Below, in pieces: positions 1 to 34,337 of a stretch of DNA of 64,000 bases. Made by a program: the position numbers and the translations under genes. The stretch is from a virus: IMG/VR virus record IMGVR_UViG_3300043567_001187, positions 1 to 64,000 of that record, one strand, 5' to 3'. The stretch's first letter is position 1, and each line of letters opens with the position of its first letter. The notes under the pieces were generated by a model, which saw nothing but the letters and a program-made list of their open reading frames with translations, was not told the DNA's origin and did not search any database.

Positions 1-3000
1 AGTTTAGATCCTAGAGATTTAAGATTTTCTGCGATTGTTGAAGAACTAGGTGGTTTTAGACAAATTGGTAAAGTTATTCCTCTTATTCAACAGTTTGCAG
101 TAGCACAGCAGGCACTTAAAGTTGCTCAACAAGGCCAGGGTATTTTAGCTAAAGACGCCGCTACTGCACAATTAAGTTTAGCAAACCAAATAGCAAAAGT
201 AAGAGAAGAATTTTTAGCATTAATTAGAAGTATTGGTGAAAGTGATAGTTTTAAGAGTTTTGTTAATTTATCACTACAATTAGCTAGCGCCTTAATAAGA
301 GTAGCTGATGCTGCAAAAGATGTACTACCAGCTATTGCCGCTATTAGTACCATTAAAGGTATTTCAGCACTAACTCAATTTGGATCTGGATTTGCTAGAG
401 GATTAACAAGACCACGAGGTTTTGCTACTGGTGGATATGTTCCTGGTAGTGGCAATAGAGATACTGTTCCAGCAATGTTAACTCCCGGCGAGTTTGTTAT
501 TAGAAAAAAGGCTGTAGAAACTATTGGCGTAAACAGACTTCAAAATCTTAATACTGGTGGTGGTGTTCAAAAATTTGCTAGAGGTTCATTTGTTATGCCA
601 AAAGCTAGAGGCGTAGCTGGAGCAAGGGGTGCTAGAAGCAGATTTAAAGATCTCACAGAAGAAGAGTTAGCACAACTTAGCACGGCCGATATGATCAAAT
701 ACGCTAAAGCTCAAGCGCGAGATATATTTAGCTCTGGTGGAGCCGGTATTGCTACAAGCAGCAAATTTATACCAGTATCAAAAGAGAGAATAACACCAGA
801 ATTAGAATCTAGCTTAACAACATACTTAGGACAAAAAGGTTTTTGGAAAGAACAAGTTTCTCCGTTTGGTAAACCAAACAAAATGGCAGTTAAAGCACAA
901 GGTAAAATGTCTAGAGAAGAAGCATTAAAGAAGCAACAATCAAGAATGGCAGACGAAGTTGCTGCTAGATCTCAACAGTGGACTAGTATACGAAGTGGAT
1001 CAGCTATAGATAATTATTTATTGAGTTCTTTAAAAGATCCTATTCTTTCTGATTATAGAACTGTTCGTGGTGGAGGTAGTTTAAGTAAACCATTTTATAA
1101 TACTCGTTTAAGACAAGCTGTTAATAAAAGTTTAGAAAGTTATGATGATTTTGATTATAGCGCCGGTAATATTGATAAACTAGTAAGCAATTTTGCTGCT
1201 AAAAAATTTGCTAGTGGTGGTTTAGTGCAGAAGTTTGCTGAAGGAGGAGCACCATTACGTCAAAAAATGTCTAGAGAAGAAAGAATTCTACAAGGTATGG
1301 ATGGTGGTCAAACCAGGGGTGGGCGTCAAATATATAACTTTGGTGTTGCTGCTTTAAGAAGAGGAGGTAGAAGAGAAGGTGAGCCAGAACCAGCCAGTAT
1401 TTCTATAGAACCATTTACTATACCTGGCAAACCACCTAAAAAGGCTCAATTTTCTATAGGTACTTTATCAACTCAGGGATTAGATAAACAAATTGAATCA
1501 ATATTAAGTAAAGGATTTATAGACTCAGTATCGACTGCTGCTAATACATTAGGAAGTCAAATAGGTAGTAAACCAATAGTAGCAGGAGCAGCTATAAATA
1601 GAATTCTCAAAGGATCAGGATTTCAATCCGTCATAGGTGCTGGATTAGAAGCTTCGATAGCTAGTATAGGATCCCCTTATATTGATAAAACAGAAAAAAC
1701 AAAAATGTTTGATTTTCCACTCGGATTAGGATCACCAGCAACACTTTTTGGTTTACAGCCAAATATTCCAACAGATGTTACTAGAACTATTGGTGGATTT
1801 GGTAAAAATAGAAGTACCCTTAAAGATGCTGCAATTAGATTTGTAAACGCTATTGAGGGTGGCGAATTTACAAAAGCAAGAAAAGATAAAATTAATACAT
1901 ATCTAGAAAAAAGAAAACTAAGAAATGCATCACCGATCACATCAGGCCAGGATAGTTTATTATCATCTATTTTTGATGATCTTGGTTCAGGAACAGTTAG
2001 AGGTGGAGCTGATTTAAGAGCAAAATACGGATTTAATAAATTAACAAAAAAACAAGTATTTGAACAACTACCACTATTATCAGAACTAGAAAGAAAATCA
2101 TTTTTAGAGGAATTTCGCAGAGCAGTGCCAGTTAGACGTAAATTGGCCTCTGGAGGCTCTATCCAGGACACCGTTCCAGCCCTACTTACTCCTGGCGAGT
2201 TTGTTATTAATAAAAAAGCTGCTAGTCGTATAGGAGCATCAAGACTACATAATCTAAATAGGGCAGATAAAATTCAAGGATTTAATAAGGGCGGGGCGGT
2301 TGGTCATGTACAAAAGTTTGCTAGTGGTAGAACTGTGAACCCTGGCGATTTTGAAGCCAGAGTTCAAAGAATATTGATGATGTTAGAACAATTTGAAAAG
2401 AATATCTATGAAGGATCACGGGCGGCAGGACAAACTGCTAGTAAAGCAAAAGAAGCCGCCAGAATAGCTGCCGGTTATAGACTTTCATCTTTAGAAGATA
2501 GTGCTGAAAGTAGAGAAGTATCACGAAGATATGGTCAACAAGGAGCGCCTCAACCAAGCACATTTAGTAGTAGAGCACAACAATATCAACAAGCGTCAAT
2601 GAATGCAGCACCAGGTATTAAACAAGATGCCTTTTGGGCTATGGGTAAATTTAATAGCATAGTCGTTGCAAGTTCTAATGCATTAAATAAATTCGGCACT
2701 ACCGTCATTGGTGTTGCTCAAAATACTGGTAGGTTTGGTTCTCAAATAGCATCGAATCCAATAGGCACCTTCCTTAAGGCCATTGCACAGGCTACAAATG
2801 GACTATATAACTTATCCAAAGCTAGTATCGGCACAATAGGTGGAGCAGGAGCGTCTGCTTTAGGTTTAGGAGGGTATACTACAGGTGCTGGTGGTGCTGG
2901 TTTGGGTTTGGGTAGTTCAAATATGAGACAACAAGCGAGAGCTTTAAGAGCACAAGGATTACGTGGATCAGCACTACGCAATGCTATGATGAATGCTGGC

Positions 3001-6000
3001 GGTGGCGGCGGAGGTATGCTCCCCTATATGTTACCCGTTGTGGGAGGATTAGCGGTTGATAGCATATCTCAAAGATATGGGGGAGAAACTACAGATACAG
3101 GACGTTTCATAGGAAACGTAGGGTCATCAGCAATAAATTATGGTGCAACAGGAGCCATGATAGGCAGCATTATTCCCGGTGTTGGAACAGGTGTTGGTGC
3201 TCTTGCCGGAATCACTTATGGAGTATATGAAGGCTTAACCAAAGTTGAAGAAGCAAGCAAAGAGTATGCTGAAAAAATGCAATCTATGAATATTGAGAGA
3301 GTAGTAGGAGCTAATGCTCAAAATATAAGTTCTTTTGCTTCTAATTCGAATCTAAAAAATAGGGCGGCAGCATTACAAAGTTTACAAAATATATCAGCTG
3401 AAGAAGATAAACTCAATCTTGTCCGATCAAAAACAGATACCGACGCCACTTTTGCTAGAAGAATAGCGTCCTCCCAACAGTCAGGAGGCAATACTGCCGC
3501 ACAATTCTTAAATACTGAAATAATTAGAACAGGCAAAACATATAGCGAATTAGCGTCATCATTAGACCCCTCTGTTGTTAAAAATATTGTAGAAGCAGAT
3601 GAAACTTATGTTAAAGAAAGAGAAAGATATAATAGACTTCTACAAGAACAAAAAGACAGAGGATTAAGTACGGATAGTTCTGCTACGGTTGCCCTACAAA
3701 AAGAACGAGATGAAGCCTTGTCGGGATTAACCAAAGAAACCATTAATAGAGTAACAGCAGAAAGCAGAGCAGCTTTAGAAGCTGAAAAGACAGCTAAACA
3801 ACAAGCTATGTTGCAACAAGCTGTTGAAAGAGTAATGCAAACTTATTCTGACTCTTTTACTGTTTTTGACCAAATTCTTAATCGTTCTTCGGCCAGTATT
3901 GAGCAAATCAATCAAAGATTAGATAAGATATCTCGTGGACTATCAGGATTTTCTGCTACAGCAAAATTAGAAGAAAATATTAACGTATTAAGAAATCCTA
4001 AAGCATTTTCTACTAAGGAAAGAGATGCTGCTTTCTCTAACGCAGCATCATCTTTCCCAGGAATGGAAAAAACCTTCAAACAAATAGCGGATTATGGTAC
4101 TAATGCCGAAAAGGCTGTTAGAGAAAATTTAAAAAGTGTGAATACAGACCGACCAGATCAAGGAGCAGTTAAGCAAGATCAAATAGCTGTTATTAGAAAG
4201 ACTTTTGATAAACAAATAAACGAAGTATTCAAAGGAGATGAAACACTTAAAAGAGCAGTTGAAACCATCTTAGAAGAAGCAACAAAGGATGCTGAAAAAG
4301 GATTTCTTGATATAGATAGTGTTATTAAACAAATAGTAGAATCTACAGGAGGACAACTAGGAACAACAGTAGAGAATCTACTAATCAAATCTCAACAACA
4401 ATTGATAGATACTTTTGATAAAATCAAAGCTAGTGCCCAAGCTATTGCTAATATTAATCAAGAAATTATTGATAGGAATGCCGCTTTTACAGCACAAACA
4501 ACCAATAATAGTATGGCCTATAGAGAAGCGTTGGGACAAAGAATATCTCCTCAAGAAAGATTACGTCTAAATCTCTCTTCGAGTGCTCAAAGATTAGGTA
4601 TAGGCTTGGCCCCTGGTCAAACTTTAAATGCTAATATAATAGCTGATCGTAGAAGTCAGCTAGAACAACAACGAAGTACTAAACAACAAGAATTAGCTAA
4701 ATTAACACCAGACTTAGAAAAAAATAAGTCAGCAGAAGAAGCGGCCAAAGCTATTGATCAGTTGCAACAAGAACTAGCAAAACTAGATAGCGCTATCGAA
4801 ACTACTAATCAGGAGTTAGAAAAATTTGGAAATACTATACAATCTTCTATAGATGAAACTATTAATAAAATAGCCGATAGAGCAAAAGTTTTAGAAGAAA
4901 ATATGTCTTTCAGAAGAGAAGACTATACCTCTCAAATAACCTCTACTCCGGAACAGAGAATAGATGCTGCTACTATTCAAAGACTTACAAGAGATGCTAT
5001 AGGTGGTAACTATAATATTGGCTCGTCTCCTGGTGCTAATAAAGCCTATAACGAATTTATGGCTCCTTATAGACAGGAAATGGTCCGACTACAATCTGTT
5101 GGTGCTCAATTTACTACTCAAGGTATGCAAGAAGTTCAGAGAGTATTAGCAGAAGGAGAAAAAGTTCGTCAACAAGCTTTTGCTCAAGAAATTGAACAAA
5201 TTATCAATAATTTTCAAAGAACCAATAGAGATCCAGAAGATCCTCAACAAAGAGCGCAATTAGGTCAATTATTACAGAATTTAGGAAAAGCTCAAGGTAT
5301 AGATCCGGCACTCATTAAGCAAGTTGCAGAAGAAGCCCAAATGAATGCTCAAGATAGAGCAAATGCAGCAAAGGCTGACCAAAAAATTATAGAATTTACA
5401 GCAGAGCTTAAGACACTATATACTGATCAGGCTACTGCTAATAAAGCTCTAAATGAAGAATCTAATGCTAGAATAATTGCGATACAGAAGGATGTGGTTG
5501 CTCCTACGCTAGAAGCTGTAACAACAAACACAAACCTTCTAAAAGCAGAAATTAAAAGATTAAGTGACGCGGTAACAGCTTTGGCGGCTGCTGGTGGAAA
5601 GCCAGTGCCAGTAGCAGCAGCACCAGCTGTTGTCGCGGGTGGTAACGCTAAGGGTGGATTAATATATGCAAATAGAGGTATGCTAGTTGATTATCAACCA
5701 AAAGGAACCGATACTGTACCCGCTATGTTAACCCCTGGGGAATTTGTTGTAAACAAAGATGCTACCCAAAAGAATTTAGGATTATTAAGAAGTATTAATA
5801 GTGGTTCAAAAGCATATAGTAAGGGTGGAGTAGTTTATGCTGCTAATGGTGGTGAGATATTAGCTAGATATAATGGTGAAGTTAAAAAATGGGAAGAAGA
5901 TTTTGCGGCTAAAAAAGCTCGCTGGACGGATAAACCACCAGAATTTACAACTTGGTTAAGAAATCAAGGATATGATAGTACTGAGCAAGAAAATGCTATC

Positions 6001-9000
6001 AGAGCACGAGGACGATCCAGAACAAGAGCAGTTAGAGATCGACAAAGCTTACAAACATCATATACATCACAAAAACCACCAACATCATCAACAGCTCTAG
6101 ATACATATAATAAATATGGCCCCTCGTCAGATGCTGATATACAGGCAAGGTTCAACACTCCTGTTCCAGAAAGGGGTGGAATTAAAAAGATTGAAAATAA
6201 TAGACTAGGACAAAAAATTTATTACAACGACGGTACGGTAGAACAACTCATACAGAAAGATGAGATTAGTAATCAAAATCAAGCATTAGAAACTTTAGTA
6301 GTAGGACCAGCTATTGGTAAGGGAATAAGTTTAGCGGCTAAAGGATTATCAAGATTTATCCCCAAAAAAATTAAATCATCAGTAACCACTACAACACAAG
6401 AAGCAGATTCTCTTACTCCAGATGCTTATAAATGGTTTTCACCAGAAACAGCAGATCCTGATAATATACGCGACTTTGTAAAAGCTGGTTTAAATATACC
6501 TGAAGCCAAAGCTGCCAGAGCTAGTGGATACAGATTACTCAAAAGAGCTAATCAAATAGATCTGGTTGATTCTAATGGTAACACTATTAGAAGATTAACA
6601 TATGGTGGAGAACCTTTAAACCCCACTATGGCTCAGGCAACCAGAGCTGCTATAAGAGAGGCTCGTCGATATAATCAAGAGGCTATGTTACCGCGTCGTC
6701 CTCGCCAGCCCGTAACCACTAATAGCTCACCAAGAGTGGCAACAACCACAGGTGCTGTTGCAGCAGCAGGGGTAATTGGAACAGGAATAGGGACTGTTGG
6801 TAACAGATTCTCTTCGAATCAACAGCCTAGTTCAACAACTACAGCATCTAGACAAGACGTTGTTGTTAGACCCACAAGTAGAACAGAGCCAAAAAAACCA
6901 CCCAAACCAGTTGTTTCTGACAATAATCGTGGCATAATAAGAGAAGAAGTTCCATCAGTAACAAAGCCAGAGGTATATGGTGCTCATCCCGCCACGGCAT
7001 CACTTAGTCCTTTTAATTTTGAGGATATAGATCCTACTGGCTCATACGACTATTATAAAGCCGCACTAGCGAGACTTGATAGCGAATTAAAAACAGTTCC
7101 AAAGGTATTATTCTATACTACAGATTGGTATAGGAATGTACAAGATGCTAATTATCAATATTATAAAGCAATGGAAGAAAAAGCAAAATATAGATTTGGT
7201 GAACCAGATCATATTAGATTTATAGAAAGCGAAAGAGCCAGAATACTGCAACAATATCAGGATAAAAAAGCTTTAGTTATGAAAAGAATTAGTGAAACTG
7301 CTAGTCCTTTTGATCCTGAATATAAACCAGCAGCCGCTATGCAAAATGAAAAAGAGGCTAATCCTATGCCTCAAACAGCGCCAAGTTCACGCAACGATGC
7401 TAGGTCCGAAGTTAGAAAACCAAGAAATGCTAAAGAAGCAAGACAAATGGAAGCTGAAAGACTAGATAAAGCAGGAATAGACTCACAAGCAGTGAATCTT
7501 GATCGTAGCGCTAAAGAAGCCATGTTTAAAAAACATTTTGAAGCTATTAATAAGCAGATCAATATACCTATAAGTAATAAACTAGCATATCTTACTCAGA
7601 TAGCTAATGATCCACGTTTTGTTGGTAATCCTGACTTACCAGAAATAAATAGAAAAATTAATGGTTTAAGCGGCTTACTTATTAGTGAAGGTATGCTTAA
7701 AGCTGCATATGGTTTATACAGAATACCAGAAATAGTTCCAGATATAGCAAAGGCTCAACAAGAAATTACAAATAGGGTAAAAGCGGCCAGCGCATTATTA
7801 AAATTCTCAGGATCTCGTAGAGAATTTTTACAAACCGGTGTCCCAGTCGCCGCACAAAACAGATCAAAGGGTGGATTAATTTATGCTAGTAATGGAATGA
7901 TGGTTCCTTATGAACCCAAAGGAACAGATACGGTGCCTGCTATGCTTACTCCAGGAGAGTTTGTTGTAAATAGAGAATCAACACAGAAAAATTTAGGACT
8001 ATTAAAAGCTATTAACAAAGCTCGTGGCGGAAAGATCTCTATGGAAGAGTTACAAATGCTAACGGGGACTTCGAGAGCAGGATTTTATACTATTTCTCCT
8101 GATGACCCAATGTTTATTGATGGATCTTCTATGAGATCAAGACCATGGGCTAGGGGCGGAGAAAAAGAAGCAACAGACCAGTATTACTATATGCAAAAAC
8201 TTTTTGAGGAATATTGGTCTAAACCTCAAATGAGAAGATATAGAAGTACTCCTGAAGGTCAAGCAAAATATGATAAAATGCGTAAAATGATAGCAACCGG
8301 TTTTGGACTTGATGCTGTAGGTCGGCCAGTTTTTAACAATCCTTTTAGTAAGTATGGAGATCCAGCATCACACGCTAAAGATTTAGAAACTATATTCGGC
8401 AGATTACCGCAGGGGATGAGCTATTCTTCTTCCACTAATGCTGCTGGGGGTAATGCATTAATGAATCAGTGGAGAAGTAATGGTGGATTAATCTATGCTA
8501 GTCAAGGTCAATTAGTCAATTATCAACCAAGAGGTAGCGATACTGTTCCCGCTATGCTTACTCCTGGAGAATTTGTCGTTAATAAAGAATCAACACAAAA
8601 AAATCTGGGCCTATTAACTGCTATTAATAAGAGTCGTGGTGGCGTAATCTATGCTAGAGATGGAGTAGAAGTTGGCGCTGGTAGTAATTCGTCTTATGGA
8701 AGTATGGGTGCTACTACCGTTAATTTTAGCATTCCACAAGATATTAAAGATCAGCTATCATCGTTAACTATGATTAAACTAGATCCCGCGGCGATAACAT
8801 CTCTTAATTCGTTCAAAACAGATTTTAGTAATATAGTACAAAGGTTAAACAATCTTAATATTAATATTCCAGCAAAAATTGAGATGGTTGGAACTCATCA
8901 GGTTAATGTTACTATAGATGCTCCTGCTCTAGAAAACATGATTCCTGGTATAGAGAGTATGGTAGCATCATCAGTATCTAGTAAGATGGAACAAATTTGG

Positions 9001-9048
9001 AATCAAAGTGGCGGTGAACTAGGACCTACTCCAACAATGTACGGATAA
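1..9048 (+). CDS. Giant tail tape-measure protein (5' end outside window)
   Basis: Frame of ORF 475..9048 is open back to base 1 (SLDPRDLRFSAIVEELGGFRQIGKVIPLI...); long helical/coiled-coil and Gly/Ala-rich hydrophobic segments; TMP-type GG...DTVPAMLTPGEFV motifs; followed by tail-like genes. Confidence 0.85.
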   Translation, partial: SLDPRDLRFSAIVEELGGFRQIGKVIPLIQQFAVAQQALKVAQQGQGILAKDAATAQLSLANQIAKVREEFLALIRSIGESDSFKSFVNLSLQLASALIRVADAAKDVLPAIAAISTIKGISALTQFGSGFARGLTRPRGFATGGYVPGSGNRDTVPAMLTPGEFVIRKKAVETIGVNRLQNLNTGGGVQKFARGSFVMPKARGVAGARGARSRFKDLTEEELAQLSTADMIKYAKAQARDIFSSGGAGIATSSKFIPVSKERITPELESSLTTYLGQKGFWKEQVSPFGKPNKMAVKAQGKMSREEALKKQQSRMADEVAARSQQWTSIRSGSAIDNYLLSSLKDPILSDYRTVRGGGSLSKPFYNTRLRQAVNKSLESYDDFDYSAGNIDKLVSNFAAKKFASGGLVQKFAEGGAPLRQKMSREERILQGMDGGQTRGGRQIYNFGVAALRRGGRREGEPEPASISIEPFTIPGKPPKKAQFSIGTLSTQGLDKQIESILSKGFIDSVSTAANTLGSQIGSKPIVAGAAINRILKGSGFQSVIGAGLEASIASIGSPYIDKTEKTKMFDFPLGLGSPATLFGLQPNIPTDVTRTIGGFGKNRSTLKDAAIRFVNAIEGGEFTKARKDKINTYLEKRKLRNASPITSGQDSLLSSIFDDLGSGTVRGGADLRAKYGFNKLTKKQVFEQLPLLSELERKSFLEEFRRAVPVRRKLASGGSIQDTVPALLTPGEFVINKKAASRIGASRLHNLNRADKIQGFNKGGAVGHVQKFASGRTVNPGDFEARVQRILMMLEQFEKNIYEGSRAAGQTASKAKEAARIAAGYRLSSLEDSAESREVSRRYGQQGAPQPSTFSSRAQQYQQASMNAAPGIKQDAFWAMGKFNSIVVASSNALNKFGTTVIGVAQNTGRFGSQIASNPIGTFLKAIAQATNGLYNLSKASIGTIGGAGASALGLGGYTTGAGGAGLGLGSSNMRQQARALRAQGLRGSALRNAMMNAGGGGGGMLPYMLPVVGGLAVDSISQRYGGETTDTGRFIGNVGSSAINYGATGAMIGSIIPGVGTGVGALAGITYGVYEGLTKVEEASKEYAEKMQSMNIERVVGANAQNISSFASNSNLKNRAAALQSLQNISAEEDKLNLVRSKTDTDATFARRIASSQQSGGNTAAQFLNTEIIRTGKTYSELASSLDPSVVKNIVEADETYVKERERYNRLLQEQKDRGLSTDSSATVALQKERDEALSGLTKETINRVTAESRAALEAEKTAKQQAMLQQAVERVMQTYSDSFTVFDQILNRSSASIEQINQRLDKISRGLSGFSATAKLEENINVLRNPKAFSTKERDAAFSNAASSFPGMEKTFKQIADYGTNAEKAVRENLKSVNTDRPDQGAVKQDQIAVIRKTFDKQINEVFKGDETLKRAVETILEEATKDAEKGFLDIDSVIKQIVESTGGQLGTTVENLLIKSQQQLIDTFDKIKASAQAIANINQEIIDRNAAFTAQTTNNSMAYREALGQRISPQERLRLNLSSSAQRLGIGLAPGQTLNANIIADRRSQLEQQRSTKQQELAKLTPDLEKNKSAEEAAKAIDQLQQELAKLDSAIETTNQELEKFGNTIQSSIDETINKIADRAKVLEENMSFRREDYTSQITSTPEQRIDAATIQRLTRDAIGGNYNIGSSPGANKAYNEFMAPYRQEMVRLQSVGAQFTTQGMQEVQRVLAEGEKVRQQAFAQEIEQIINNFQRTNRDPEDPQQRAQLGQLLQNLGKAQGIDPALIKQVAEEAQMNAQDRANAAKADQKIIEFTAELKTLYTDQATANKALNEESNARIIAIQKDVVAPTLEAVTTNTNLLKAEIKRLSDAVTALAAAGGKPVPVAAAPAVVAGGNAKGGLIYANRGMLVDYQPKGTDTVPAMLTPGEFVVNKDATQKNLGLLRSINSGSKAYSKGGVVYAANGGEILARYNGEVKKWEEDFAAKKARWTDKPPEFTTWLRNQGYDSTEQENAIRARGRSRTRAVRDRQSLQTSYTSQKPPTSSTALDTYNKYGPSSDADIQARFNTPVPERGGIKKIENNRLGQKIYYNDGTVEQLIQKDEISNQNQALETLVVGPAIGKGISLAAKGLSRFIPKKIKSSVTTTTQEADSLTPDAYKWFSPETADPDNIRDFVKAGLNIPEAKAARASGYRLLKRANQIDLVDSNGNTIRRLTYGGEPLNPTMAQATRAAIREARRYNQEAMLPRRPRQPVTTNSSPRVATTTGAVAAAGVIGTGIGTVGNRFSSNQQPSSTTTASRQDVVVRPTSRTEPKKPPKPVVSDNNRGIIREEVPSVTKPEVYGAHPATASLSPFNFEDIDPTGSYDYYKAALARLDSELKTVPKVLFYTTDWYRNVQDANYQYYKAMEEKAKYRFGEPDHIRFIESERARILQQYQDKKALVMKRISETASPFDPEYKPAAAMQNEKEANPMPQTAPSSRNDARSEVRKPRNAKEARQMEAERLDKAGIDSQAVNLDRSAKEAMFKKHFEAINKQINIPISNKLAYLTQIANDPRFVGNPDLPEINRKINGLSGLLISEGMLKAAYGLYRIPEIVPDIAKAQQEITNRVKAASALLKFSGSRREFLQTGVPVAAQNRSKGGLIYASNGMMVPYEPKGTDTVPAMLTPGEFVVNRESTQKNLGLLKAINKARGGKISMEELQMLTGTSRAGFYTISPDDPMFIDGSSMRSRPWARGGEKEATDQYYYMQKLFEEYWSKPQMRRYRSTPEGQAKYDKMRKMIATGFGLDAVGRPVFNNPFSKYGDPASHAKDLETIFGRLPQGMSYSSSTNAAGGNALMNQWRSNGGLIYASQGQLVNYQPRGSDTVPAMLTPGEFVVNKESTQKNLGLLTAINKSRGGVIYARDGVEVGAGSNSSYGSMGATTVNFSIPQDIKDQLSSLTMIKLDPAAITSLNSFKTDFSNIVQRLNNLNINIPAKIEMVGTHQVNVTIDAPALENMIPGIESMVASSVSSKMEQIWNQSGGELGPTPTMYG
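460..501 (+). repeat. DTVPAMLTPGEFVI motif copy 1
   Basis: Read directly in translation. Confidence 0.95.
2167..2208 (+). repeat. DTVPALLTPGEFVI motif copy 2
   Basis: Read directly in translation. Confidence 0.95.
5710..5751 (+). repeat. DTVPAMLTPGEFVV motif copy 3
   Basis: Core of a ~55-aa repeat GGLIYA..G..V.YQPKG.DTVPAMLTPGEFVVN...TQKNLGLL..IN. Confidence 0.95.
7927..7968 (+). repeat. DTVPAMLTPGEFVV motif copy 4
   Basis: Same ~55-aa repeat, synonymous divergence at DNA level. Confidence 0.95.
8539..8580 (+). repeat. DTVPAMLTPGEFVV motif copy 5
   Basis: Same ~55-aa repeat. Confidence 0.95.
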
Positions 9049-9052
9049 TATT

Positions 9053-10765
9053 ATGAGTTATGACCCTCCAGTAAAACTATACTATGCAGCAAATAATGAG
9101 TCTACTAGTGAAGACTGTAGATTAGTTCCAGCACCACAAATCAGTATTAGTCCAGAAATATATTATGCAAATAATATAGCAATAGGATATACTTTTAATG
9201 TAACGTTAAATGGTTATGCTACTTCTTTAGACCTTAGAAATCCAGCTCCTAGTGCGATTTTTTCAGATACCCTAGAATCTATTCAAAATATAAAAAATCT
9301 TTTTTTTGTTAATAATGGCACTTTACTTATCACTAACAACGGTAGTGAAATTTTAAAAGGTACTGGAGGCATAGTAAAAAGTATACAGTTTGAAGAATCT
9401 GATAATCAATGGATTAATTATGCTCCGTATACTATAGAACTAGAACTGAACGAATTAAATATTGGAAGCTGTGGTGGTGCCCCATCTTTTGCTTGTGGAA
9501 ATATCCCAGAAGGTATAGTAGAAACACCAGAATTAGTTGATATGACTAAATATAAAATTAAATCTTTTGAAGATAGTTGGAGTATTACTTTAGATGAAAA
9601 TATTTATAGTAGCCATAGCGGGATTGATAATCAGTACTTTAACTTAGAATACAATGTTAGCGCTATAGGCAAACATTACTTTAATGGTCAAAACTTATTA
9701 CCAGCTTGGGAACAAGCTAAAAACTTTTGTCAAGATAGATTAACTAAACAAATCAATAGTTTAACTGATCAATGCTTAGACGGAGAAACAACAGAAGGAT
9801 GTGAAGGCACTACGTTATCTAATGCTTTTATAACTTCTGATGGTAACGGCATACTATCAGAAATAAACCTAGATTCTAGTTATGATATTTTTAATGAAAG
9901 CGCTAGTGTAGAAGCTTCAGAAGCTGAAGGTTCTTTCAAAATTAACTATAAAAGCATAATAAAAAAAAGAGGAAGTGCTGAAAAAGCTATTCATACTTTT
10001 ATAGTAACTAAAAAAATATCAGATGACGAGAACGGAAAAATTATTTCATACAATATTTCAGGCTCAATACAGGGGTTGATCCCTGGAGCTTTAATAAGAA
10101 AAGAAAGTCATTTAAAACTACCATCGTATGGAACAGTAATTGAAAGCACTACTTTCAACGGCGATTCTAAGTATAGTAATGCTTATAGTTATTATATCTC
10201 TAATGTAGGAGATAATAAAACTTTACTAGTAGATTTTGTTAGAGATAAAATAAATAATAATGATATTAATATCACATACGCAGGATTAGGAATATCAGGA
10301 TGTTCTGATCCTACTACAGCTCCAGACAGATGTACATCTTTTTCTTTAACGCATGACAATATCAAAGGGATAATATCTTATGAAGCCGAATATGATGGAT
10401 CTAAAATATTAAGCTTAATAGATAAAATTCCTATAAAAACATATAGCTTATCCATAGAAGAACCATTGCCTATGACGGCAGAATTTATAATCCCTGGAAG
10501 AAGCGGTGGTCCGGTGATACAATTGCTAGATATCGAAACCCCACGCAAATACACATTATCGGTGGAAGGATTAGAGACACCAAACTTGTGCAACACAACG
10601 AATATAAGTTCTTTGGTTTCCGGCGCCTGTAATGGAGACTATGCTATAGATAGCGTTGGTATTCCTAATATAGACTTAGGCACTGTTTTCTTAATAGAAG
10701 AAAAATACAAAAAAGGATTTAATGGTACTTATACTCTTAATAGGACTTATATAGAATATGAGTAA
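9053..10765 (+). CDS. Putative tail/baseplate protein, paralog A
   Basis: 570 aa, beta-rich, directly after TMP; shares blocks with the next ORF. Confidence 0.55.
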   Translation: MSYDPPVKLYYAANNESTSEDCRLVPAPQISISPEIYYANNIAIGYTFNVTLNGYATSLDLRNPAPSAIFSDTLESIQNIKNLFFVNNGTLLITNNGSEILKGTGGIVKSIQFEESDNQWINYAPYTIELELNELNIGSCGGAPSFACGNIPEGIVETPELVDMTKYKIKSFEDSWSITLDENIYSSHSGIDNQYFNLEYNVSAIGKHYFNGQNLLPAWEQAKNFCQDRLTKQINSLTDQCLDGETTEGCEGTTLSNAFITSDGNGILSEINLDSSYDIFNESASVEASEAEGSFKINYKSIIKKRGSAEKAIHTFIVTKKISDDENGKIISYNISGSIQGLIPGALIRKESHLKLPSYGTVIESTTFNGDSKYSNAYSYYISNVGDNKTLLVDFVRDKINNNDINITYAGLGISGCSDPTTAPDRCTSFSLTHDNIKGIISYEAEYDGSKILSLIDKIPIKTYSLSIEEPLPMTAEFIIPGRSGGPVIQLLDIETPRKYTLSVEGLETPNLCNTTNISSLVSGACNGDYAIDSVGIPNIDLGTVFLIEEKYKKGFNGTYTLNRTYIEYE

Positions 10766-12368
10766 TATTACTTTTACATATGGTGGTGCAACGATAGCGC
10801 CAGCACCCAAAATTAATATAAAATCAAATATAATATATGCAAATGATAGCGCTATTGGATATGAGCATGAAGTTACTCTTAATGGACAAGCTATCGATAA
10901 AGATGTTTTAACATTTGGTGCAACGATATCTAAAGCAGAAGAAATAAGACAAACTTTATCTAAAAATGGATCAGTATTAATAGTGTCTGGCGATGGATCG
11001 GATTTAATAAAAGCTTTTGGGGGAGTATTAACAGATCTAAAATTTGATTCTGATAATTCATTTAGTAAATTTGCTAATTATTCAGCAACTATTATTTTTA
11101 ATGAGTTAAATATATTAGATGATTCTTTTAGTTGTAATTCCTCTCAGCTGTCTGGATATAGTCAGCTTATAGATATTAATAAATATAAGATCAAAGAATT
11201 TACTGATAGTTGGACATTTAATTTAGATGATGGAATTTATGATTTTGATAACCAAATTAATAATAGTCAATTAAGTGTATCTTATCAAATATTAGCTAAA
11301 GGATTATCCTATTTTACAGAAGATTCGAATATTGTCTTGCCATGGCAGCAGGCTAAAAATTTTGTTCAAGATAAACTATTTACTCAAATAAAAAATTTTC
11401 ATAACAAGAATATTCTCAAATTAGATGCTGATACAGCTTGCGCAGCCTCTAAATCATTAACAGATCTACATTCGGATAATGGTCAATTATACGCCATAAA
11501 CCTATCATATTATGTATATGATGAAACTATTTCTTGTGAAACATCAGAAGCTGAAGGCACATTTTCTGCCACATATAATGCTATACTAAAATTTGATGAT
11601 GATAATTCAGATATTTCCAGTAAAGAGGCTATACATAACTTTACAAAAAAAATTAGTACCAACTATGAAGGATCAAAAGAGATTATATCATTGTCTGTAG
11701 ATGGTACTATTAAAGGATTAAATAGTTCTAATTTATCTACAGATTTAGTATTTGGTGGTTTTTCTTTACCCAAAAACGGCAAACTTTTAAAGGATGGCAA
11801 CAGTTTTACAAAATTAACTAATGCAAATATAGCTAAAAATAAGATTATAAACGCCTCGCAAGAAGATTTTACAGATACTTTTAAAGATATTCTAAATATT
11901 GAAGATATTTTTTCTACCTTAAATTGTTCTGATACAATAATATCTCCTAATGTTTTTAGCTTGACAACAGATCTTTTTTTAGGTATAATAAATTATAGTG
12001 CGCAATATTCTAGCGATAGATTATTAGCCGTTGATAGTGGAAATATAGTAATATATAATACCACAATAGATGTTGAGAAACCCAAACCAATATATGCAGA
12101 ATTACCTATTGTTAATGGAAACTATGTTATACAGGATTTATCTACTACTACTAGTCAAAAAATTAATATTGGCGTGAATGGTAGGTTAAAATATGATCAG
12201 TGTACTGCTCAACCATCGTTACAGAAAATTAAAGGCATTATGGAAGAATTTACTTTTCCCACAGGATTGAACTTTATATTAACAAATAAAAATTTATTAT
12301 ATAATTTTCCCAACCATAGTTTTACTATGAATGTATCATATTTATGTAAGAGTGGGTGTCCAATATGA
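10758..12368 (+). CDS. Putative tail/baseplate protein, paralog B
   Basis: 536 aa; shares PAP.I.I, YAN..AIGY...VTLNG, KYKIK.F.DSW, W.QAKNF.QD.L, SEAEG.F with previous ORF. Confidence 0.55.
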   Translation: MSNITFTYGGATIAPAPKINIKSNIIYANDSAIGYEHEVTLNGQAIDKDVLTFGATISKAEEIRQTLSKNGSVLIVSGDGSDLIKAFGGVLTDLKFDSDNSFSKFANYSATIIFNELNILDDSFSCNSSQLSGYSQLIDINKYKIKEFTDSWTFNLDDGIYDFDNQINNSQLSVSYQILAKGLSYFTEDSNIVLPWQQAKNFVQDKLFTQIKNFHNKNILKLDADTACAASKSLTDLHSDNGQLYAINLSYYVYDETISCETSEAEGTFSATYNAILKFDDDNSDISSKEAIHNFTKKISTNYEGSKEIISLSVDGTIKGLNSSNLSTDLVFGGFSLPKNGKLLKDGNSFTKLTNANIAKNKIINASQEDFTDTFKDILNIEDIFSTLNCSDTIISPNVFSLTTDLFLGIINYSAQYSSDRLLAVDSGNIVIYNTTIDVEKPKPIYAELPIVNGNYVIQDLSTTTSQKINIGVNGRLKYDQCTAQPSLQKIKGIMEEFTFPTGLNFILTNKNLLYNFPNHSFTMNVSYLCKSGCPI

Positions 12369-14146
12369 CAACAGTTTTAGAACCAGCAATATCGGGACTG
12401 CCTATATATTTTATGGGAGGTTCTGTAGTATCTTTTAATGCTTCTATAGGTTTTGGCTCTCAGCAAGAAAGCACACTAACAGTAGAACTCATAGAAGACT
12501 GTGAAACACAATGCGGCACACCTCAAACTATTCAAACCTCAGGAATTATAGGAAGTCCGCAATATTTTACTGCTGGAAATTTTACTTTTGGTGGTATAGT
12601 TACTTCGTGGAATAAAACTAAAAATATAAACGGTGAAATATATACTATAAAATTAAACGATCCTAGACAGCTTTTACAAAATGTTACTATTATTACAGAC
12701 AGTATTAGAGGCACTACAAGCCCCACTTCTATCGGCTCTACTAATTATTGGCAGAATGAGACTATATATGGACCTAATTATTATAATGTATTTGCATGGT
12801 ATGAAGATAGGCTAACCATTACTAATGGGGTGGGTAGTAAATGTCCTGCTTTTGGTGACTCTGGAAATGTTGATGGTCAAGGAATGCCATACTCTAGAAT
12901 AAAACATGCTCTGACTCCAAGAATTTTTCCAACAGGTACTTTCTTCACTCCAGTCCGACCAGTTCACGGTCCGTTAGGCGCGTTCCCATACAGTATGTTT
13001 TCCGCTTTAGCATATAGCGGAACTCCTCTAAAGTCTTCTCCTGACAATATCAATACTTATAATTTTGAAGTGGATTTAAATACTTTGCCAAACGCTCCTG
13101 ATTACTATAGGGTGCCTGGACCAAGCACCACATTACTAGAAATGGCACAGGATGTTTGCGATGTAATGGCTCAAGATTTTTATGTTTATATGGAACAAGT
13201 ACCAGTATCCGGACAAGCTCCTAAAAATATTATTAAATTTGGATTAGTAGATTTGACTGCCAACCCTTCTAGTTTTAATACCATATTAACAGCCTTTAGC
13301 GGACAAGCATTGGATTTATCTTTTGGAGAAGAATTTAGAAGTGATATTACACGTAGTATACTTATTGGAGAAAATATACATCAATTAACTTATGTTAATG
13401 AATTTTTACCATTTTTTGGAGAAGACCTAGATCCTATCACTTTAAACATGCGTCCTGTAATAGCTTTTTATTTTGACTATAATGGATTTTGGATAGCAAA
13501 AAATGTCAACGATTTAAATTCTAAATTATATAATCCCTTTTTTGTTAATAATGGATTATATTCTATTCATGAATTAGATATAAGATGTGCGATGGCCTCT
13601 TTTAAAGCTTGGTTTTTTCGTACTTTTACGGGAGAATCCTTAGAAGAGTCTGGGTATTTGGGTACTCCAGGAACATTTAATAGTGCTATTAGAAATCGTT
13701 TCTCTAATTGTGTAATAAATAATCCAGACTGGATAAAAACTAGACTTATAGATTCTGAAGATCAACTCAATATCATACAATCTTCACTGTATAAAAGTGC
13801 TCAAGATTTATTTCAAAATCCTACACAATTTGCTGCTGCTAGTAATAAACCAGATAATTTGATCGATTTAGAAAAAATACATTCGTGGCTAGCAGATTTA
13901 GGCAACACATATTATGGTAAACAATATATAGTTTCAGCACCAAATATATGTTTTAGAAAAATTACAGACGGATCAGTTGTTTTTACCAAAGAACCAACTA
14001 ATGCCGGTGGTTGGGTAGAACCTGGAAGTACAGTATTAGATTTGACGGATCCAGAACTAGAAACATTTAGAACAGAAGATGGACGTATTAAATGTTTTGC
14101 CGTATTTAAAACTGATGGTGAAGTATATAATGCTGGAGTTAATTAA
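12365..14146 (+). CDS. Putative tail tip/hub protein
   Basis: ATG at 12365 overlaps upstream stop (ATGA); tail-module position; beta-rich N-terminus. Confidence 0.45.
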   Translation: MTTVLEPAISGLPIYFMGGSVVSFNASIGFGSQQESTLTVELIEDCETQCGTPQTIQTSGIIGSPQYFTAGNFTFGGIVTSWNKTKNINGEIYTIKLNDPRQLLQNVTIITDSIRGTTSPTSIGSTNYWQNETIYGPNYYNVFAWYEDRLTITNGVGSKCPAFGDSGNVDGQGMPYSRIKHALTPRIFPTGTFFTPVRPVHGPLGAFPYSMFSALAYSGTPLKSSPDNINTYNFEVDLNTLPNAPDYYRVPGPSTTLLEMAQDVCDVMAQDFYVYMEQVPVSGQAPKNIIKFGLVDLTANPSSFNTILTAFSGQALDLSFGEEFRSDITRSILIGENIHQLTYVNEFLPFFGEDLDPITLNMRPVIAFYFDYNGFWIAKNVNDLNSKLYNPFFVNNGLYSIHELDIRCAMASFKAWFFRTFTGESLEESGYLGTPGTFNSAIRNRFSNCVINNPDWIKTRLIDSEDQLNIIQSSLYKSAQDLFQNPTQFAAASNKPDNLIDLEKIHSWLADLGNTYYGKQYIVSAPNICFRKITDGSVVFTKEPTNAGGWVEPGSTVLDLTDPELETFRTEDGRIKCFAVFKTDGEVYNAGVN

Positions 14147-14149
14147 ATT

Positions 14150-16096
14150 ATGTCTAGAATATTAGATTGTGGAAATCTAGATATATCAAATATTTCAGAA
14201 GAAATCATAACCATTAATCAATCAGCATGGGTTGCTGCTGACGTTGATGAAAAAATATATTTATATTCAACAAACAATACTGTTTTTGGATTTATGGTAA
14301 TAAAATTTGCTTCTCCATGTTTAGCTACACTTTGTGACGATACAACAAGTAGAGGAATTCAATTCGCAGTAAGTACACAAGAAATGGCATTGCGCGATTT
14401 AGAAAATTTTAGAGATTTTGCTATAAATAACACGTCATATTACTCTCAACAAATGAATAATGCTCTTGCAAATTTTGGATTACCACCATCTCATGCTAGT
14501 CATTTTAATCCACAATGGGGTATTCAAAGGCCAATTCCATCATTTAATGATAAAATCAGCAAAAACTTAGCTTCTCAACCCACAAAAGGTATAGACGCTC
14601 ACAATCTTAATGATTTTGGTTTTCAATCAGTAGCAGTTAGACCTCTAGGTGCTGTTATTCCATTAAGAGATAATTTTGACACTTATGGACCATGGACATC
14701 TAATAATTTTTGGACTTCTACGGGTGGAATAAGTGTTACTAGTGATAATAGTTTTTCTCCTTGGACTTTCGGATCTATATATACATTAAATAACGCAGGA
14801 GAAAATATAGTTGAATTTAGTAATAGAGGATTAGTGAAGGCTGAGACTGGTCTCGTTACGCTTGTAGGAATTCCATCTTCTGAACACAATTTGCCAAAAC
14901 TAGGGGAAAAATTATCAGGATTTGGACCTAATTTAACTTCAGTAAACTTTAGCTTAAGCACTAAAGGGGCAACTACAACCTATGAATTTAAAACATACAC
15001 TCCTAAATTTGGTAAACTTACAAAATTATTTTATGATAGATATAAAGAATTAAACAAGGCAAGAAATAAGCAACTTAAACTACTTAAAGATTTTCAAAGT
15101 AAACAAAATAAATTATATAGAAAAATTGCAGCACGAAGAATTAGAGAAAAATTAGACTCAGTTAAACCCGATGCCTTTAGCAATAGTATGCAAAGAGTAA
15201 TTATTGGATATATGGATGATTGGTATAATTTAGGTGATGGTTCAAAATCTCAAAAAACAGTTGTTGGTATGGCTACATTAGCAAAAACTAGTTTGGAAAC
15301 TTTTGCTGATGAAAACATGAATAAAAGCATAATGAGCTTAGATGGTATCTTTAGTCCGGTATCAAATTATAATTCAGCTTTACCTAGAGTAGTAGAGCCA
15401 GAAGACCCAACAATTATTAATACTTTGCCTGCTATGCCACCAGGATTTAGCGATTTTGAAAATCCAAAAACAATTAATAGTAAAAGTTATAATCCTATAA
15501 CTATTGGAGATACAGAAGGACCAGCAAAATTTCATGATGGTGAAGCTATGGGTCATTCTATAGATATTATAGGTAGAAATTCTATACCAAAAAATGGTCT
15601 AATTAATAGTTTTTATGGGTTGTCTCAAGACGATAAAGAAAAAAAATATGGAGAAGGATCATATAACTTTATAGCTTTAAAAGGCCCATTAATGCTACAT
15701 TCATGGGGTTATGATCTGGAGGGTAATCCTGTACCTGGAGACGGAACAACTTTTGAAAGTAATTGGTTACAAAAGCCAAAATCTTGGCCAGTAGCTCCGA
15801 TAGATCTTAGGTTTGATAAACAAAGAGGTATGTGGGTATGTCCTCAGCCTTTTAGAATTGTTACTGGTACCTTATTGAGTCCACTACTTCCTGGACAAGA
15901 AGCTTTTGCTATATTAGAAGATGATTTTTCTAAAAGAGTTGGAGTAGTAGATAAAATAGGTCGTTCATGGAAAGCTGGTACTCGTTGTTATCTTTATTTT
16001 GATGCTTATATTAATGTGTATATCGTATTAGAAGGTCATGAACCAGAAGAGCCAGATGATGAAACTAATTGTTGTGATGAATCTGATGTGGACTAA
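14150..16096 (+). CDS. Putative tail protein
   Basis: 648 aa, same frame as previous ORF after a single TAA; tail-module position. Confidence 0.45.
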   Translation: MSRILDCGNLDISNISEEIITINQSAWVAADVDEKIYLYSTNNTVFGFMVIKFASPCLATLCDDTTSRGIQFAVSTQEMALRDLENFRDFAINNTSYYSQQMNNALANFGLPPSHASHFNPQWGIQRPIPSFNDKISKNLASQPTKGIDAHNLNDFGFQSVAVRPLGAVIPLRDNFDTYGPWTSNNFWTSTGGISVTSDNSFSPWTFGSIYTLNNAGENIVEFSNRGLVKAETGLVTLVGIPSSEHNLPKLGEKLSGFGPNLTSVNFSLSTKGATTTYEFKTYTPKFGKLTKLFYDRYKELNKARNKQLKLLKDFQSKQNKLYRKIAARRIREKLDSVKPDAFSNSMQRVIIGYMDDWYNLGDGSKSQKTVVGMATLAKTSLETFADENMNKSIMSLDGIFSPVSNYNSALPRVVEPEDPTIINTLPAMPPGFSDFENPKTINSKSYNPITIGDTEGPAKFHDGEAMGHSIDIIGRNSIPKNGLINSFYGLSQDDKEKKYGEGSYNFIALKGPLMLHSWGYDLEGNPVPGDGTTFESNWLQKPKSWPVAPIDLRFDKQRGMWVCPQPFRIVTGTLLSPLLPGQEAFAILEDDFSKRVGVVDKIGRSWKAGTRCYLYFDAYINVYIVLEGHEPEEPDDETNCCDESDVD

Positions 16097-16112
16097 ATTA
16101 TAGGGTATTTTT

Positions 16113-18839: not shown

Positions 18840-20435
18840 TCATTGTTTATAAACAATAAACTGATCAGTAGATAAAATATCTAATCCTGTATTATCTAAC
18901 ATCCATAATCCATCTTTATATGAATTAATTAATGGTTTACCATTTATATTAAAAGATGTATTTAATAGTACGCCTATTCCAGATAGTTTTTCAAATTCTG
19001 TAAGTAAATCATATATAAAAGAATTTTGGTCTTTTGTAACCGTTTGTAATCTTGCTGTTCCATCAATGTGGGTGATAGATACTAATTGTTCCTTATATTC
19101 TTCCCTAACATTAGCATAATAACTCATAAATCTACTTTCACCATTAAATTCAAAATACTTATTAGCATCTTCCAATTTAACTACAGGAGCAAATGGTCTG
19201 AACCACTCTCTTCTTTTAACCTTTTGATTAAGAATATCTTTCATGTTCGGTATGGCAGGATTGCATAGTATACTCCTATTGCCAAGTGCTCGCGGTCCGT
19301 GCTCACAATCACCTTGTATTAATCCTACTATATTTCCATTATTTAAAATTTCAGCCATTTTTTCATGACTATATACTTCTGACCATTTATTTTCTATTAA
19401 TTCATATATACAATAAGGATCCAAAACTGGCAACCCTCCATATGTTACATCAACTTGATATCTGGGTCTTTCATAGTCTAATAACATACCCAACGCCAGC
19501 CCCGAATCATTTGAGTTTGGCGCTATAAATATTGGTCTATTAAATAAATCCTTAACTCTTGTGTTACAAACAACATTTAGAGCGCAGCCTCCGGTTAAAC
19601 ATATAGGTAGATGACTATACTCTATTGAATTTAATATTGGTGTAATAATTTCTAAAAATATTTCTTCAAATACTTTCTGAGATGTTGCAGCTATATCTAA
19701 AGCCAAGTCTCCCATTAGTCTATTATTCGTATCAAATACTATTCCAATTTTTGATCCTATTATTGTATTAATTTTTTCTAAATAATCTATACCATTGGGT
19801 TTACTGAAATAATAATCTTTAAAGTATCTTACCCAGTCTTCTCTTACTGATCCGTATCCACACAAACCCATTAGTTTTCCAGCGTATACTAAATTACCGA
19901 TAGATAATTCTGATTCAAACTTAATTTCATTAATAAAATGTCCAAAGGACATATAAGCAAAACCTAAATCTATATCTACGTTCTGTATATTTGTAACACT
20001 GTTTTGTCTATTCCCATAAAATATATTAAAAAATCCATCGCTACCACCCCCATCATAACTAATAATAATAGCTTCATCAAAAGGAGATTGATAAAATGTT
20101 CCGGCAGCATGGGCCTTATGGTGTAAACAAAAATGTTTATTTTTAGCCGATATAAGATCTTCAAATTTTATATGATCACTTCCATATATCACATCGGTAT
20201 TCGCATATAATAGATTATCAAAAAGTAAACTATTATTAAATTCCTTTTTAATATACTGTAAAATTTGATCTAGAATATAGAAAGAGTTACGACACAACAG
20301 ATACTGTGTTAAGCCATAATTTTTTTTATTAATAAATCTTTCTATTTCTATAATTTTATACCTATTATTATCTCTAAAGGCGATACCACCATTATGAGAT
20401 CCGTATATAGCTAAATTATTTTCATGATAGTACAT
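18840..20435 (-). CDS. O-carbamoyltransferase (NodU/CmcH/TobZ family)
   Basis: HHKAHAA, DGGG.DG, GGCALN, NDSGLALG, GPRALGNRSIL, KRREWFRPFAP, HIDGTARLQTV, LNTSFN; ATG at 20435 preferred over TTG at 20453. Confidence 0.93.
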   Translation of the reverse strand: MYYHENNLAIYGSHNGGIAFRDNNRYKIIEIERFINKKNYGLTQYLLCRNSFYILDQILQYIKKEFNNSLLFDNLLYANTDVIYGSDHIKFEDLISAKNKHFCLHHKAHAAGTFYQSPFDEAIIISYDGGGSDGFFNIFYGNRQNSVTNIQNVDIDLGFAYMSFGHFINEIKFESELSIGNLVYAGKLMGLCGYGSVREDWVRYFKDYYFSKPNGIDYLEKINTIIGSKIGIVFDTNNRLMGDLALDIAATSQKVFEEIFLEIITPILNSIEYSHLPICLTGGCALNVVCNTRVKDLFNRPIFIAPNSNDSGLALGMLLDYERPRYQVDVTYGGLPVLDPYCIYELIENKWSEVYSHEKMAEILNNGNIVGLIQGDCEHGPRALGNRSILCNPAIPNMKDILNQKVKRREWFRPFAPVVKLEDANKYFEFNGESRFMSYYANVREEYKEQLVSITHIDGTARLQTVTKDQNSFIYDLLTEFEKLSGIGVLLNTSFNINGKPLINSYKDGLWMLDNTGLDILSTDQFIVYKQ

Positions 20436-20439
20436 AATA

Positions 20440-21702: not shown

Positions 21703-21705
21703 AAG

Positions 21706-31841: not shown

Positions 31842-31869
31842 ATAATAGATCTGAGCGGTAGGGTGTCAA
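31842..31869 (-). promoter_or_regulatory. Sigma70-like promoter for ssb
   Basis: TTGACA-N16-TATTAT. Confidence 0.6.
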
Positions 31870-34165: not shown

Positions 34166-34337
34166 CAACATCTACTTCTGTGAGGGGTTGTACAAATGTT
34201 CTATTATTAGGATCTGCTACTTGTTGAGCATTGATAGATTTGCAGCAACTAATTTTTACAGCATTAATTTTTGTGTATTCTACATCATTAAGCTTAAACT
34301 TTTCATCTACAGATATATCTTTAAATTGTTTTTTCAT
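34152..34337 (-). CDS. Small hypothetical protein
   Basis: 61 aa, GGAG RBS, overlaps both neighbours. Confidence 0.6.
   Translation of the reverse strand: MKKQFKDISVDEKFKLNDVEYTKINAVKISCCKSINAQQVADPNNRTFVQPLTEVDVDDQL

Follow-up and report, generated by a model that had tools for sequence, protein, structure and literature searches.

The stretch of DNA analysed here, which we call the window, comprises 64,000 nucleotides (nt) and corresponds to bases 1-64000 of the virus record IMGVR_UViG_3300043567_001187 (94,485 bases, estimated to be 68% complete). It opens inside a gene for a tape measure protein (TMP), which occupies positions 1..9048 of the plus strand, is open from base 1 and ends in a stop codon at 9046-9048; its 5' end is cut by the start of the contig. 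The product has at least 3015 amino acids (aa) and is at least four times longer than a typical TMP. The subject of this text is a conserved module that occurs five times in this protein, together with the segments between its copies, to which we refer as bays, and the manner in which these segments are kept or replaced in related phages.

The window frame itself gives no match to PF10145, its N-terminus lying outside a contig that begins inside the gene, and Pfam and NCBIfam return nothing significant for the whole protein. Its identity is given by a relative. Its counterpart on IMG/VR contig L005 is the 3327-aa protein P0002, a full-length orthologue whose residue 379 is where the alignment with the window protein begins; P0002 is 89% identical to the latter over window aa 2-416 and has PF10145 (PhageMin_Tail) at aa 190-391 (E 4.5e-19). 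An earlier note on this DNA had called the protein a TMP and, as far as sequence relationships go, the window frame is indeed a TMP of the TP901 type. In PHROGs the matches to the whole protein fall at the modules and include a TMP family; only phrog_1047 falls between modules. GenBank phages match by tblastn at the module only, mostly in annotated TMPs, and a megablast of the gene against them returned no match. A word-based search, which covered proteins of 1829-5823 aa, gave 3157 related proteins at E<=1e-3 among 7999 scored. The 120 relatives listed measure 1958-5786 aa and share mainly their first ~565 residues; PF10145 is found in 119 of these 120, near the N-terminus.

The pattern D[TS][VI]PA[ML]L[TS]PGEFV occurs in frame +1 at aa 154, 723, 1904, 2643 and 2847, that is at nt 460, 2167, 5710, 7927 and 8539, exactly where the earlier note had placed its five copies of a motif. 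The window has no other copy in any of its six frames, and a looser pattern, run over the same six frames of the 64 kb, yielded none either. These 13 residues are the core of a module of 60-80 aa, which reads [FY]AxGG ... DTVPAMLTPGEFV ... short helix ... GG. Every module is bracketed by the motifs [FY]AxGG and GGx[VI][YQ], and a lone half-module with a single bracket, KFASGGLVQKFAEGG, stands at aa 403-417.

Self-BLAST of the protein in chunks divides the modules, all on the plus strand, into two types. Type A consists of module 1 (409..603, aa 137-201; E 6e-22 with the module hidden Markov model, HMM) and module 2 (2143..2334, aa 715-778; E 7e-21), which match each other over aa 127-200 and 701-781 with 45% identity in 86 columns (E 1e-16). 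Type B consists of module 3 (5635..5868, aa 1879-1956; E 9e-33), module 4 (7846..8070, aa 2616-2690; E 6.5e-30) and module 5 (8458..8685, aa 2820-2895; E 2.9e-30), with identities of 78% (1883-1933 against 2622-2672), 68% (1885-1953 against 2828-2891) and 79% (2619-2679 against 2823-2883) and self-BLAST E values from 5e-27 to 7e-31. At E<0.01 the protein shows no further internal repeat, hence the segments between modules are mutually unrelated at the level of BLAST, as had been claimed. Over 55 codons the type B copies have 39-44 residues in common, yet 118-124 of 165 bases (72-75%), and the identical residues are encoded by different codons in 17 of 39 to 19 of 40 cases (43-48%); the longest run of identical bases between any two module copies is 8-16 nt. 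Given that the residues are kept and the codons have diverged, the repeats are old and maintained at the protein level. This agrees with the view that the last three copies are the core of one repeat with synonymous divergence, and the module is, to judge from its codons, conserved by purifying selection.

A module HMM built from 486 non-identical copies finds modules in every one of the 121 family proteins, between 2 and 8 in each and most often 5: two in 26 proteins, three in 1, four in 21, five in 33, six in 17, seven in 16 and eight in 7. In 120 relatives the median start of the first module is aa 518, and the median distance from the end of the last module to the C-terminus is 136.5 aa. 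When a profile of ten copies was read against 1.84 billion cluster representatives, 14,464 of them matched at E<=1e-3, and 838 of these reached E<=1e-30; the number of module stretches per protein rose to 11, in proteins of 7794 and 7872 aa; at least 646 stretches that match the module are found in viral contigs. The cultured siphophage Nodularia phage vB_NpeS-2AV2 (KU230356, L127) has a TMP of 3404 aa (gene 8983-19197) in which the HMM places two modules next to each other, at aa 996-1046 and 1079-1111.

The earlier note had described the motif as a C-terminal element of TMPs that is usually present once. Among cultured phages this is true of phage lambda, where the family HMM aligns to aa 733-789 of the TMP gpH (FATGG...PAGIVHRGEFVFTKEATSRIGVGNLYRLMRGYATGG; 19.9 bits, E 2.3e-8 with Z=1, a single target), and of the GenBank phage records with a module match, which have it at one place in 21 cases out of 21; but in the present family multiple copies are normal. 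No Pfam family covers the module. PF09718 (Tape_meas_lam_C), at first taken for its family, is the wrong one: it covers gpH 627-701, outside the module, and has no match to the window protein or its five modules at E<=10.

An AlphaFold2 (AF2) model of the module as a monomer, made from an alignment of 139 diverse copies, reaches a predicted local distance difference test score (pLDDT) of 60.8 and a predicted template modelling score (pTM) of 0.26, and its sole element is a short helix after the GEFV strand region. We infer from the model that the module would not fold alone. Such a lack of an autonomous fold fits lambda virions, in which, according to the available text of PMC12617516, gpH ~690-817 is unresolved; the same text places this region next to an unexplained cleavage. 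A complex prediction with three copies scored 0.01 against a mark of 0.42, which counts neither way on self-association.

Bay 1 falls into two parts. Bay 1a (604..1248, aa 202-416) is conserved, with homologues in 26 of 461 sequences, and the half-module lies at its end. Bay 1b (1249..2142, aa 417-714) is predicted to be a globular alpha/beta domain: the AF2 model has a mean pLDDT of 75.1 and a pTM of 0.63, with ten-residue block means of 77-93 across residues 51-200, and G546, D571, G575, R595 and T596 are invariant columns in 38 sequences. By profile, 78 of the 121 family proteins have a single copy of the core of this domain, in every case in bay 1, and in P0002, the closest relative, aa 881-1136 are a diverged homologue (E 4.8e-35); thus we regard bay 1b as a conserved, position-fixed TMP domain and no free cassette. 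The profile homology rules out bay 1 as swapped cargo, a reading in which aa 417-714 and P0002 801-1055 were taken as unrelated; what is seen is replacement by a diverged allele. A PD-(D/E)xK nuclease, suggested by eye from E...D...(D/E)-x-(K/T)-R-T, was dropped because the AF2 model matches no nuclease, and a wide VIA fold search with this model gave a best Z of 4.7, from helices only. Peptide patterns revealed no close relatives of bay 1b in viral contigs. The best ESM Atlas scores, 0.76 for bay 3 and 0.82 for bay 1b, belong to unnamed viral clusters and are uninformative.

Bay 2 (aa 779-1878) has collinear homologues in 81 of the 461 sequences. Its first part (2335..3300, aa 779-1100) is variable and Gly-rich and contains, by hydropathy and composition, a Gly-rich hydrophobic stretch, whose most hydrophobic 19-mer is aa 1053-1071; aa 865-1095 match phrog_1047, 'tail associated lysin', weakly (E 0.0018). 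The remaining 778 aa (3301..5634, aa 1101-1878) are poor in Pro and Gly, with 6.4 of these per 100 aa and up to 70 residues in a row free of both, and presumably represent an ordinary ruler, probably helical from its composition. Bays 1 and 2 are hence not cargo, one being a fixed globular domain and the other a collinear ruler.

Bay 3 (5869..7845, aa 1957-2615) and bay 4 (8071..8457, aa 2691-2819) are lineage-specific cassettes. In 5.8 billion proteins the only homologues of bay 3 are P0002 (partial) and P0154, a C-terminal fragment of 1360 aa in which the bay is collinear at 36-43% identity; a three-way alignment reveals small conserved islands and indel-rich linkers rich in Pro, Ser, Thr and Lys. 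The sole homologue of bay 4 among the 461 sequences is P0002. Bays 3 and 4 contain 12.3 and 17.1 Pro+Gly per 100 aa, with longest Pro/Gly-free runs of 33 and 21, against the 6.4 of the ruler, which by composition alone is consistent with the claim that several segments are not coiled coil. A Gly/Ala-rich hydrophobic stretch in bay 3 (~6739-6801, aa ~2247-2267) is kept in all three carriers; glycine-zipper stretches in TMP C-terminal regions have been linked to membrane translocation in the available part of PMC10240207. Behind module 5 the protein ends in a conserved C-terminal domain (8686..9045, aa 2896-3015) with homologues in 31 of the 461 sequences.

How the bays behave between relatives is best seen when the window is compared with L005 at the DNA level. 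In window residues, aa 2-413 are 81.6% identical, aa 718-855 92.3%, aa 1004-1958 77.8% and aa 2428-3016 91.6%, and there is no similarity in the stretches between these blocks (aa 414-717, 856-1003 and 1959-2427). Two of the six block edges, at aa 718 by module 2 and at aa 1958 by module 3, are no more than 5 aa away from a module edge (P 0.018 by simulation), and three of the six are if the half-module is counted, with the edge at aa 413 in bay 1a (P 0.0016). Across the family, in 156 proteins, 35.3% of 912 de-duplicated ends of strong high-scoring segment pairs (HSPs) lie inside modules, where 9.4% of random positions would; for a distance of no more than 10 aa from a module the shares are 43.8% and 12.1%. 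In P0154, modules 4 and 5 and the C-terminus are retained at 71-74% identity, and an unrelated cassette of ~240 aa separates the two modules; in P0003 the whole stretch between the end of module 3 and that of module 5 is replaced. The window protein, P0154 and P0003 thus have several modules in common and differ in the cassettes that these enclose. The 435 bays form 89 clusters, one of which holds 225, mostly bays 1 and 2; the other 88 include 50 singletons, and window bays 3 and 4 are each in a cluster of two.

The replacement cassette of P0154 (aa 922-1163) deserves a separate remark. It contains an HExxH motif, HEIVH, and its sole weak homologue, aa 3040-3206 of an open reading frame (ORF) of L033 (26% identity, E 7.5e-4), has HELAH in the aligned stretch. 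There is no Pfam match to the cassette, and the motif hints at a zincin-like peptidase.

Judged by the sequence comparisons, blocks of different ancestry do meet preferentially at module edges. Probably this reflects exchange between same-position modules of different phages, which reach up to 92% DNA identity, or else filtering by selection for junctions at module borders. Between paralogous copies the longest run of identical bases is 16, which would make them poor anchors for classical homologous recombination between positions. Hence the idea of modules as recombination anchors, put forward in the earlier note, survives in that breakpoints are enriched at modules, but is overstated where it concerns pairing between different copies. 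Its swappable segments are likewise real for the C-proximal bays, which are replaced by unrelated sequence, but not for the fixed domain of bay 1 or the ruler of bay 2. The same division appears in the comparison of relatives that it had proposed as a check, where modules should be kept and segments vary: module number ranges from 2 to 8 and bays 3 and 4 are peculiar to a lineage, but bay 2 is homologous and collinear.

As to the surroundings, the TMP heads a block in which it is followed by five large ORFs on the same strand (9053-18839); replication genes then follow on the other strand, and the remainder of the contig is given to replication, nucleotide and sugar-biosynthesis genes on that opposite strand. 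The L005 genes upstream of its TMP show no reliable family. DNA polymerase III alpha is encoded in two ORFs within 31866-36202 (-), one at 34334-36202 (-) with PHP and pol3_alpha domains and one at 31866-33479 (-) with finger and HHH domains; between them lies an ORF for an RNase_T-type exonuclease (33476-34171). HNH or homing endonuclease-like ORFs stand among the replication genes at 27221-28015 (-) and 44116-44703 (-). A large set of sugar-modification genes is spread over window 18840-31417 and 60599-61705 and over L003:697-10140, and includes a carbamoyltransferase, a GlcNAc transferase, an FkbM methyltransferase, NeuB, a DegT aminotransferase, a GDP-mannose dehydratase, a DHQ-synthase-like protein, a TPP enzyme and several glycosyltransferases. 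An actin-like protein of the Volactin family (L003:13326-14327, equal to contig 77326-78327, -; PF25216, E 4.7e-64) adjoins a RuvB-like ATPase.

Two proteases are encoded among the non-structural genes, one ClpP-like (window 56669-57343, -; PF00574, E 8e-15) and one trypsin-like (L003:12186-12935, equal to contig 76186-76935, -; PF00089, E 1.4e-11). Both are possible processing enzymes, with no link to the TMP. TMP N-termini at 46-58% identity occur in L128, L129 and L130, records of metagenome-assembled genomes that are labelled SAR202, Chitinophagia and Verrucomicrobiales; since these labels come from three different groups and the contigs are probably phage contigs binned with cells, they give no host.

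Our reading of the locus, to which we assign a probability of roughly 0.7, is that it encodes the TMP of an uncultured large tailed phage, in which a conserved backbone is followed, near the C-terminus, by variable cassettes fenced by modules. The backbone would consist, in order, of a TP901-type N-terminal domain (outside the window), module 1, the globular alpha/beta domain, module 2, the Gly-rich hydrophobic stretch, the probable helical ruler of ~780 aa and module 3. In the C-proximal region two more modules would fence the two lineage-specific cassettes, and the conserved domain of 120 aa would close the protein. In the module itself we see, in multiplied form, the element that lambda gpH has once, at aa 733-789. 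In a TMP the C-terminus is at the tail tip, and the protein exits the tail before the DNA does; of all phage protein, the C-proximal cassettes would thus meet the host envelope first, and this first contact could account for their diversification. Precedents for TMPs that exit the tail and carry functions are lambda gpH* and T5 pb2C (PMC12617516, in its available text) and gp96 of P23-45 (PMC10770324, likewise). What the modules do is a separate matter. We tentatively favour a junction or docking element that would acquire its structure only once the tail is assembled or the protein ejected, a role for which we see somewhat less than an even chance, over a cutting site, which seems to us a good deal more doubtful.

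Several observations weigh against this reading. Three of the six DNA block edges with respect to L005 are away from modules, and the ends of HSPs may be drawn to modules as the best-conserved stretches; for the same reason the enrichment cannot separate recombination inside modules from selection for domain-border junctions. The N-terminal part of the protein and the upstream tail genes of this phage fall outside the contig, and neither Pfam nor PHROGs gives a name to any of the five ORFs behind the TMP, whose sole match is the unnamed phrog_15511. TIGR01541, which covers gpH 472-813, does not match the window protein or its five modules at E<=1. Bay 3, largely islands in low-complexity linkers, could be a fast-drifting spacer. 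Further, the earlier note had taken the segments for payload domains, and in this it is not supported: no inter-module segment matches a Pfam or NCBIfam family, no cassette has a recognisable function, the model of bay 1b has no Foldseek match at E<=1e-3 in the PDB or BFVD, and no recognisable enzyme domain was found inside the window TMP with Pfam, NCBIfam and PHROGs or, for bay 1b, by fold search.

The most serious competitor holds that the modules serve assembly only, in contact with the tail chaperone, the tube lumen or the tip hub, and that the segments are fast-drifting length filler without cargo. The absence of a predicted autonomous fold agrees with this, as do the fixed places of the modules beside both terminal conserved domains, the near absence of homologues and of known domains in bays 3 and 4, and the richness of bay 3 in low-complexity linkers. 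However, the cassettes are replaced and not drifted, since DNA identity falls from 92% to none at sharp edges, and P0154 has an unrelated cassette of different length between the same modules. Moreover, the domain of bay 1 is confidently folded in AF2 and has invariant polar residues, and the islands of bay 3 are kept at 36-43% identity between distant carriers. On balance we consider assembly and filling as the sole role of modules and segments to be unlikely.

Another possibility is that the protein is a polyprotein, in which the modules, or the Gly-Gly motifs that bracket them, are proteolytic sites as in the maturation of gpH to gpH* and gpHC, so that the virion would hold the ruler together with several separate small proteins, to be released into the host. 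In lambda the cut site and the protease are unidentified according to the available text of PMC12617516. The homologous module of gpH does lie just downstream of the cleavage region in lambda, brackets of the same kind are present at every module, and the ClpP-like and trypsin-like proteases are encoded on the contig. On the other hand there is no sign of cutting, and the estimated cut in lambda is upstream of the module and outside it. Self-cleavage mediated by the Asn that is invariant in the modules of this family was set aside, because gpH has Arg at this place, which makes a shared self-cleaving chemistry unlikely. Beside the TMP we find neither a JAB nor an NlpC-type tail protease, and the two proteases of the contig sit among non-structural genes. 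We think it rather unlikely that the protein is cut in this way. An assembly chimera or assembly duplications, which might be suspected in a metagenome contig that starts inside a gene, have a negligible chance, as a frame with the same five modules is present from end to end in the independent contig L005, 25-28% of the bases differ between copies, and thousands of database proteins share the architecture.

With the TMP seen as a conserved backbone with module-fenced cassettes, it is tempting to go one step further, in a speculation that we ourselves hold to be improbable. The gpH-like module might be a general release or hand-over signal, and giant TMPs might be polyproteins packed in the virion, which free their cassettes in the tail or in the host envelope. 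If this were true, there would be tailed phages with exchangeable pre-made proteins delivered ahead of the DNA, and the single module of lambda would be the key to the maturation of gpH into gpH* and gpHC.

TMPs are usually regarded as passive rulers with one added enzyme at most. Nearest to this family among what is known come, as an element, the single module of gpH and, as a concept, TMPs with an embedded function; repeated gpH-like modules in TMPs were not found described in the open-access full text of PMC or in bioRxiv. In the present family, which has thousands of metagenomic members, a conserved backbone is combined with cassettes close to the tail tip that are exchanged between copies of an ancient module. 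The multiplied module also offers a handle on the role of the single element of gpH, beside its long-unexplained cleavage region. Should the cassettes act in the host, they would form a large untapped pool of early-acting phage proteins, and the TMP would be a scaffold for loading proteins into tails. Should they not act there, the family still illustrates how tail length and tip architecture evolve by replacement bounded by modules.

Among known systems there is a likeness to polymorphic toxins such as CdiA and Rhs, in which a short conserved motif demarcates a variable C-terminal cassette. The CdiA-CT regions are described as variable in the available part of PMC11630599. The resemblance, a conserved junction beside cassettes swapped between lineages, is an evolutionary analogy: there is no homology and there are no immunity genes, and the TMP has several internal bays where the toxins have one C-terminal tip. 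Another likeness is to the Sle1-type effectors of actinobacterial contractile injection systems, which, according to the available text of PMC13277306, are TMP-related and have exchangeable functional domains. Going by that description alone, both would be TMP-derived carriers loaded in a tail-like tube with a variable, exchangeable module. Sle1, however, belongs to a contractile injection system and not to a phage, and it has a single C-terminal functional domain instead of several cassettes fenced by modules.

Within phages, gp96 of Thermus phage P23-45 is a protein of 5002 aa with an N-terminal virion RNA polymerase (PMC10770324, in its available text), and the C-terminal fragment of T5 pb2 has been proposed to degrade the cell wall (PMC12617516, likewise). 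Both are proteins of the tail lumen that carry a function other than that of a ruler into the host, which for the window TMP is proposed by analogy. Neither is among the tblastn hits of the window TMP to GenBank phages. In gp96 and pb2 the activity of the extra domain has been identified, whereas the window cassettes have no recognisable family or fold (the fold search having been made for bay 1b only), and the available texts on the two proteins mention no repeated junction module. Like TMPs of the TP901-1 type, the relatives of the window protein have PF10145 near the N-terminus, and the window gene heads a same-strand block of large ORFs; the window protein differs from such TMPs in its repeated modules, its embedded globular domain and its hypervariable C-proximal cassettes.

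The nearest counterpart of the module itself remains that of lambda gpH. In both proteins only a short distance separates the element from the C-terminal end, which sits at the tail tip; in lambda aa 733-789 lie inside the gpHC fragment. The N-terminus of gpH, however, is TMP_2 (PF06791) and not PF10145, and while gpH has one copy of the module, the window TMP has five and its relatives have up to 11.

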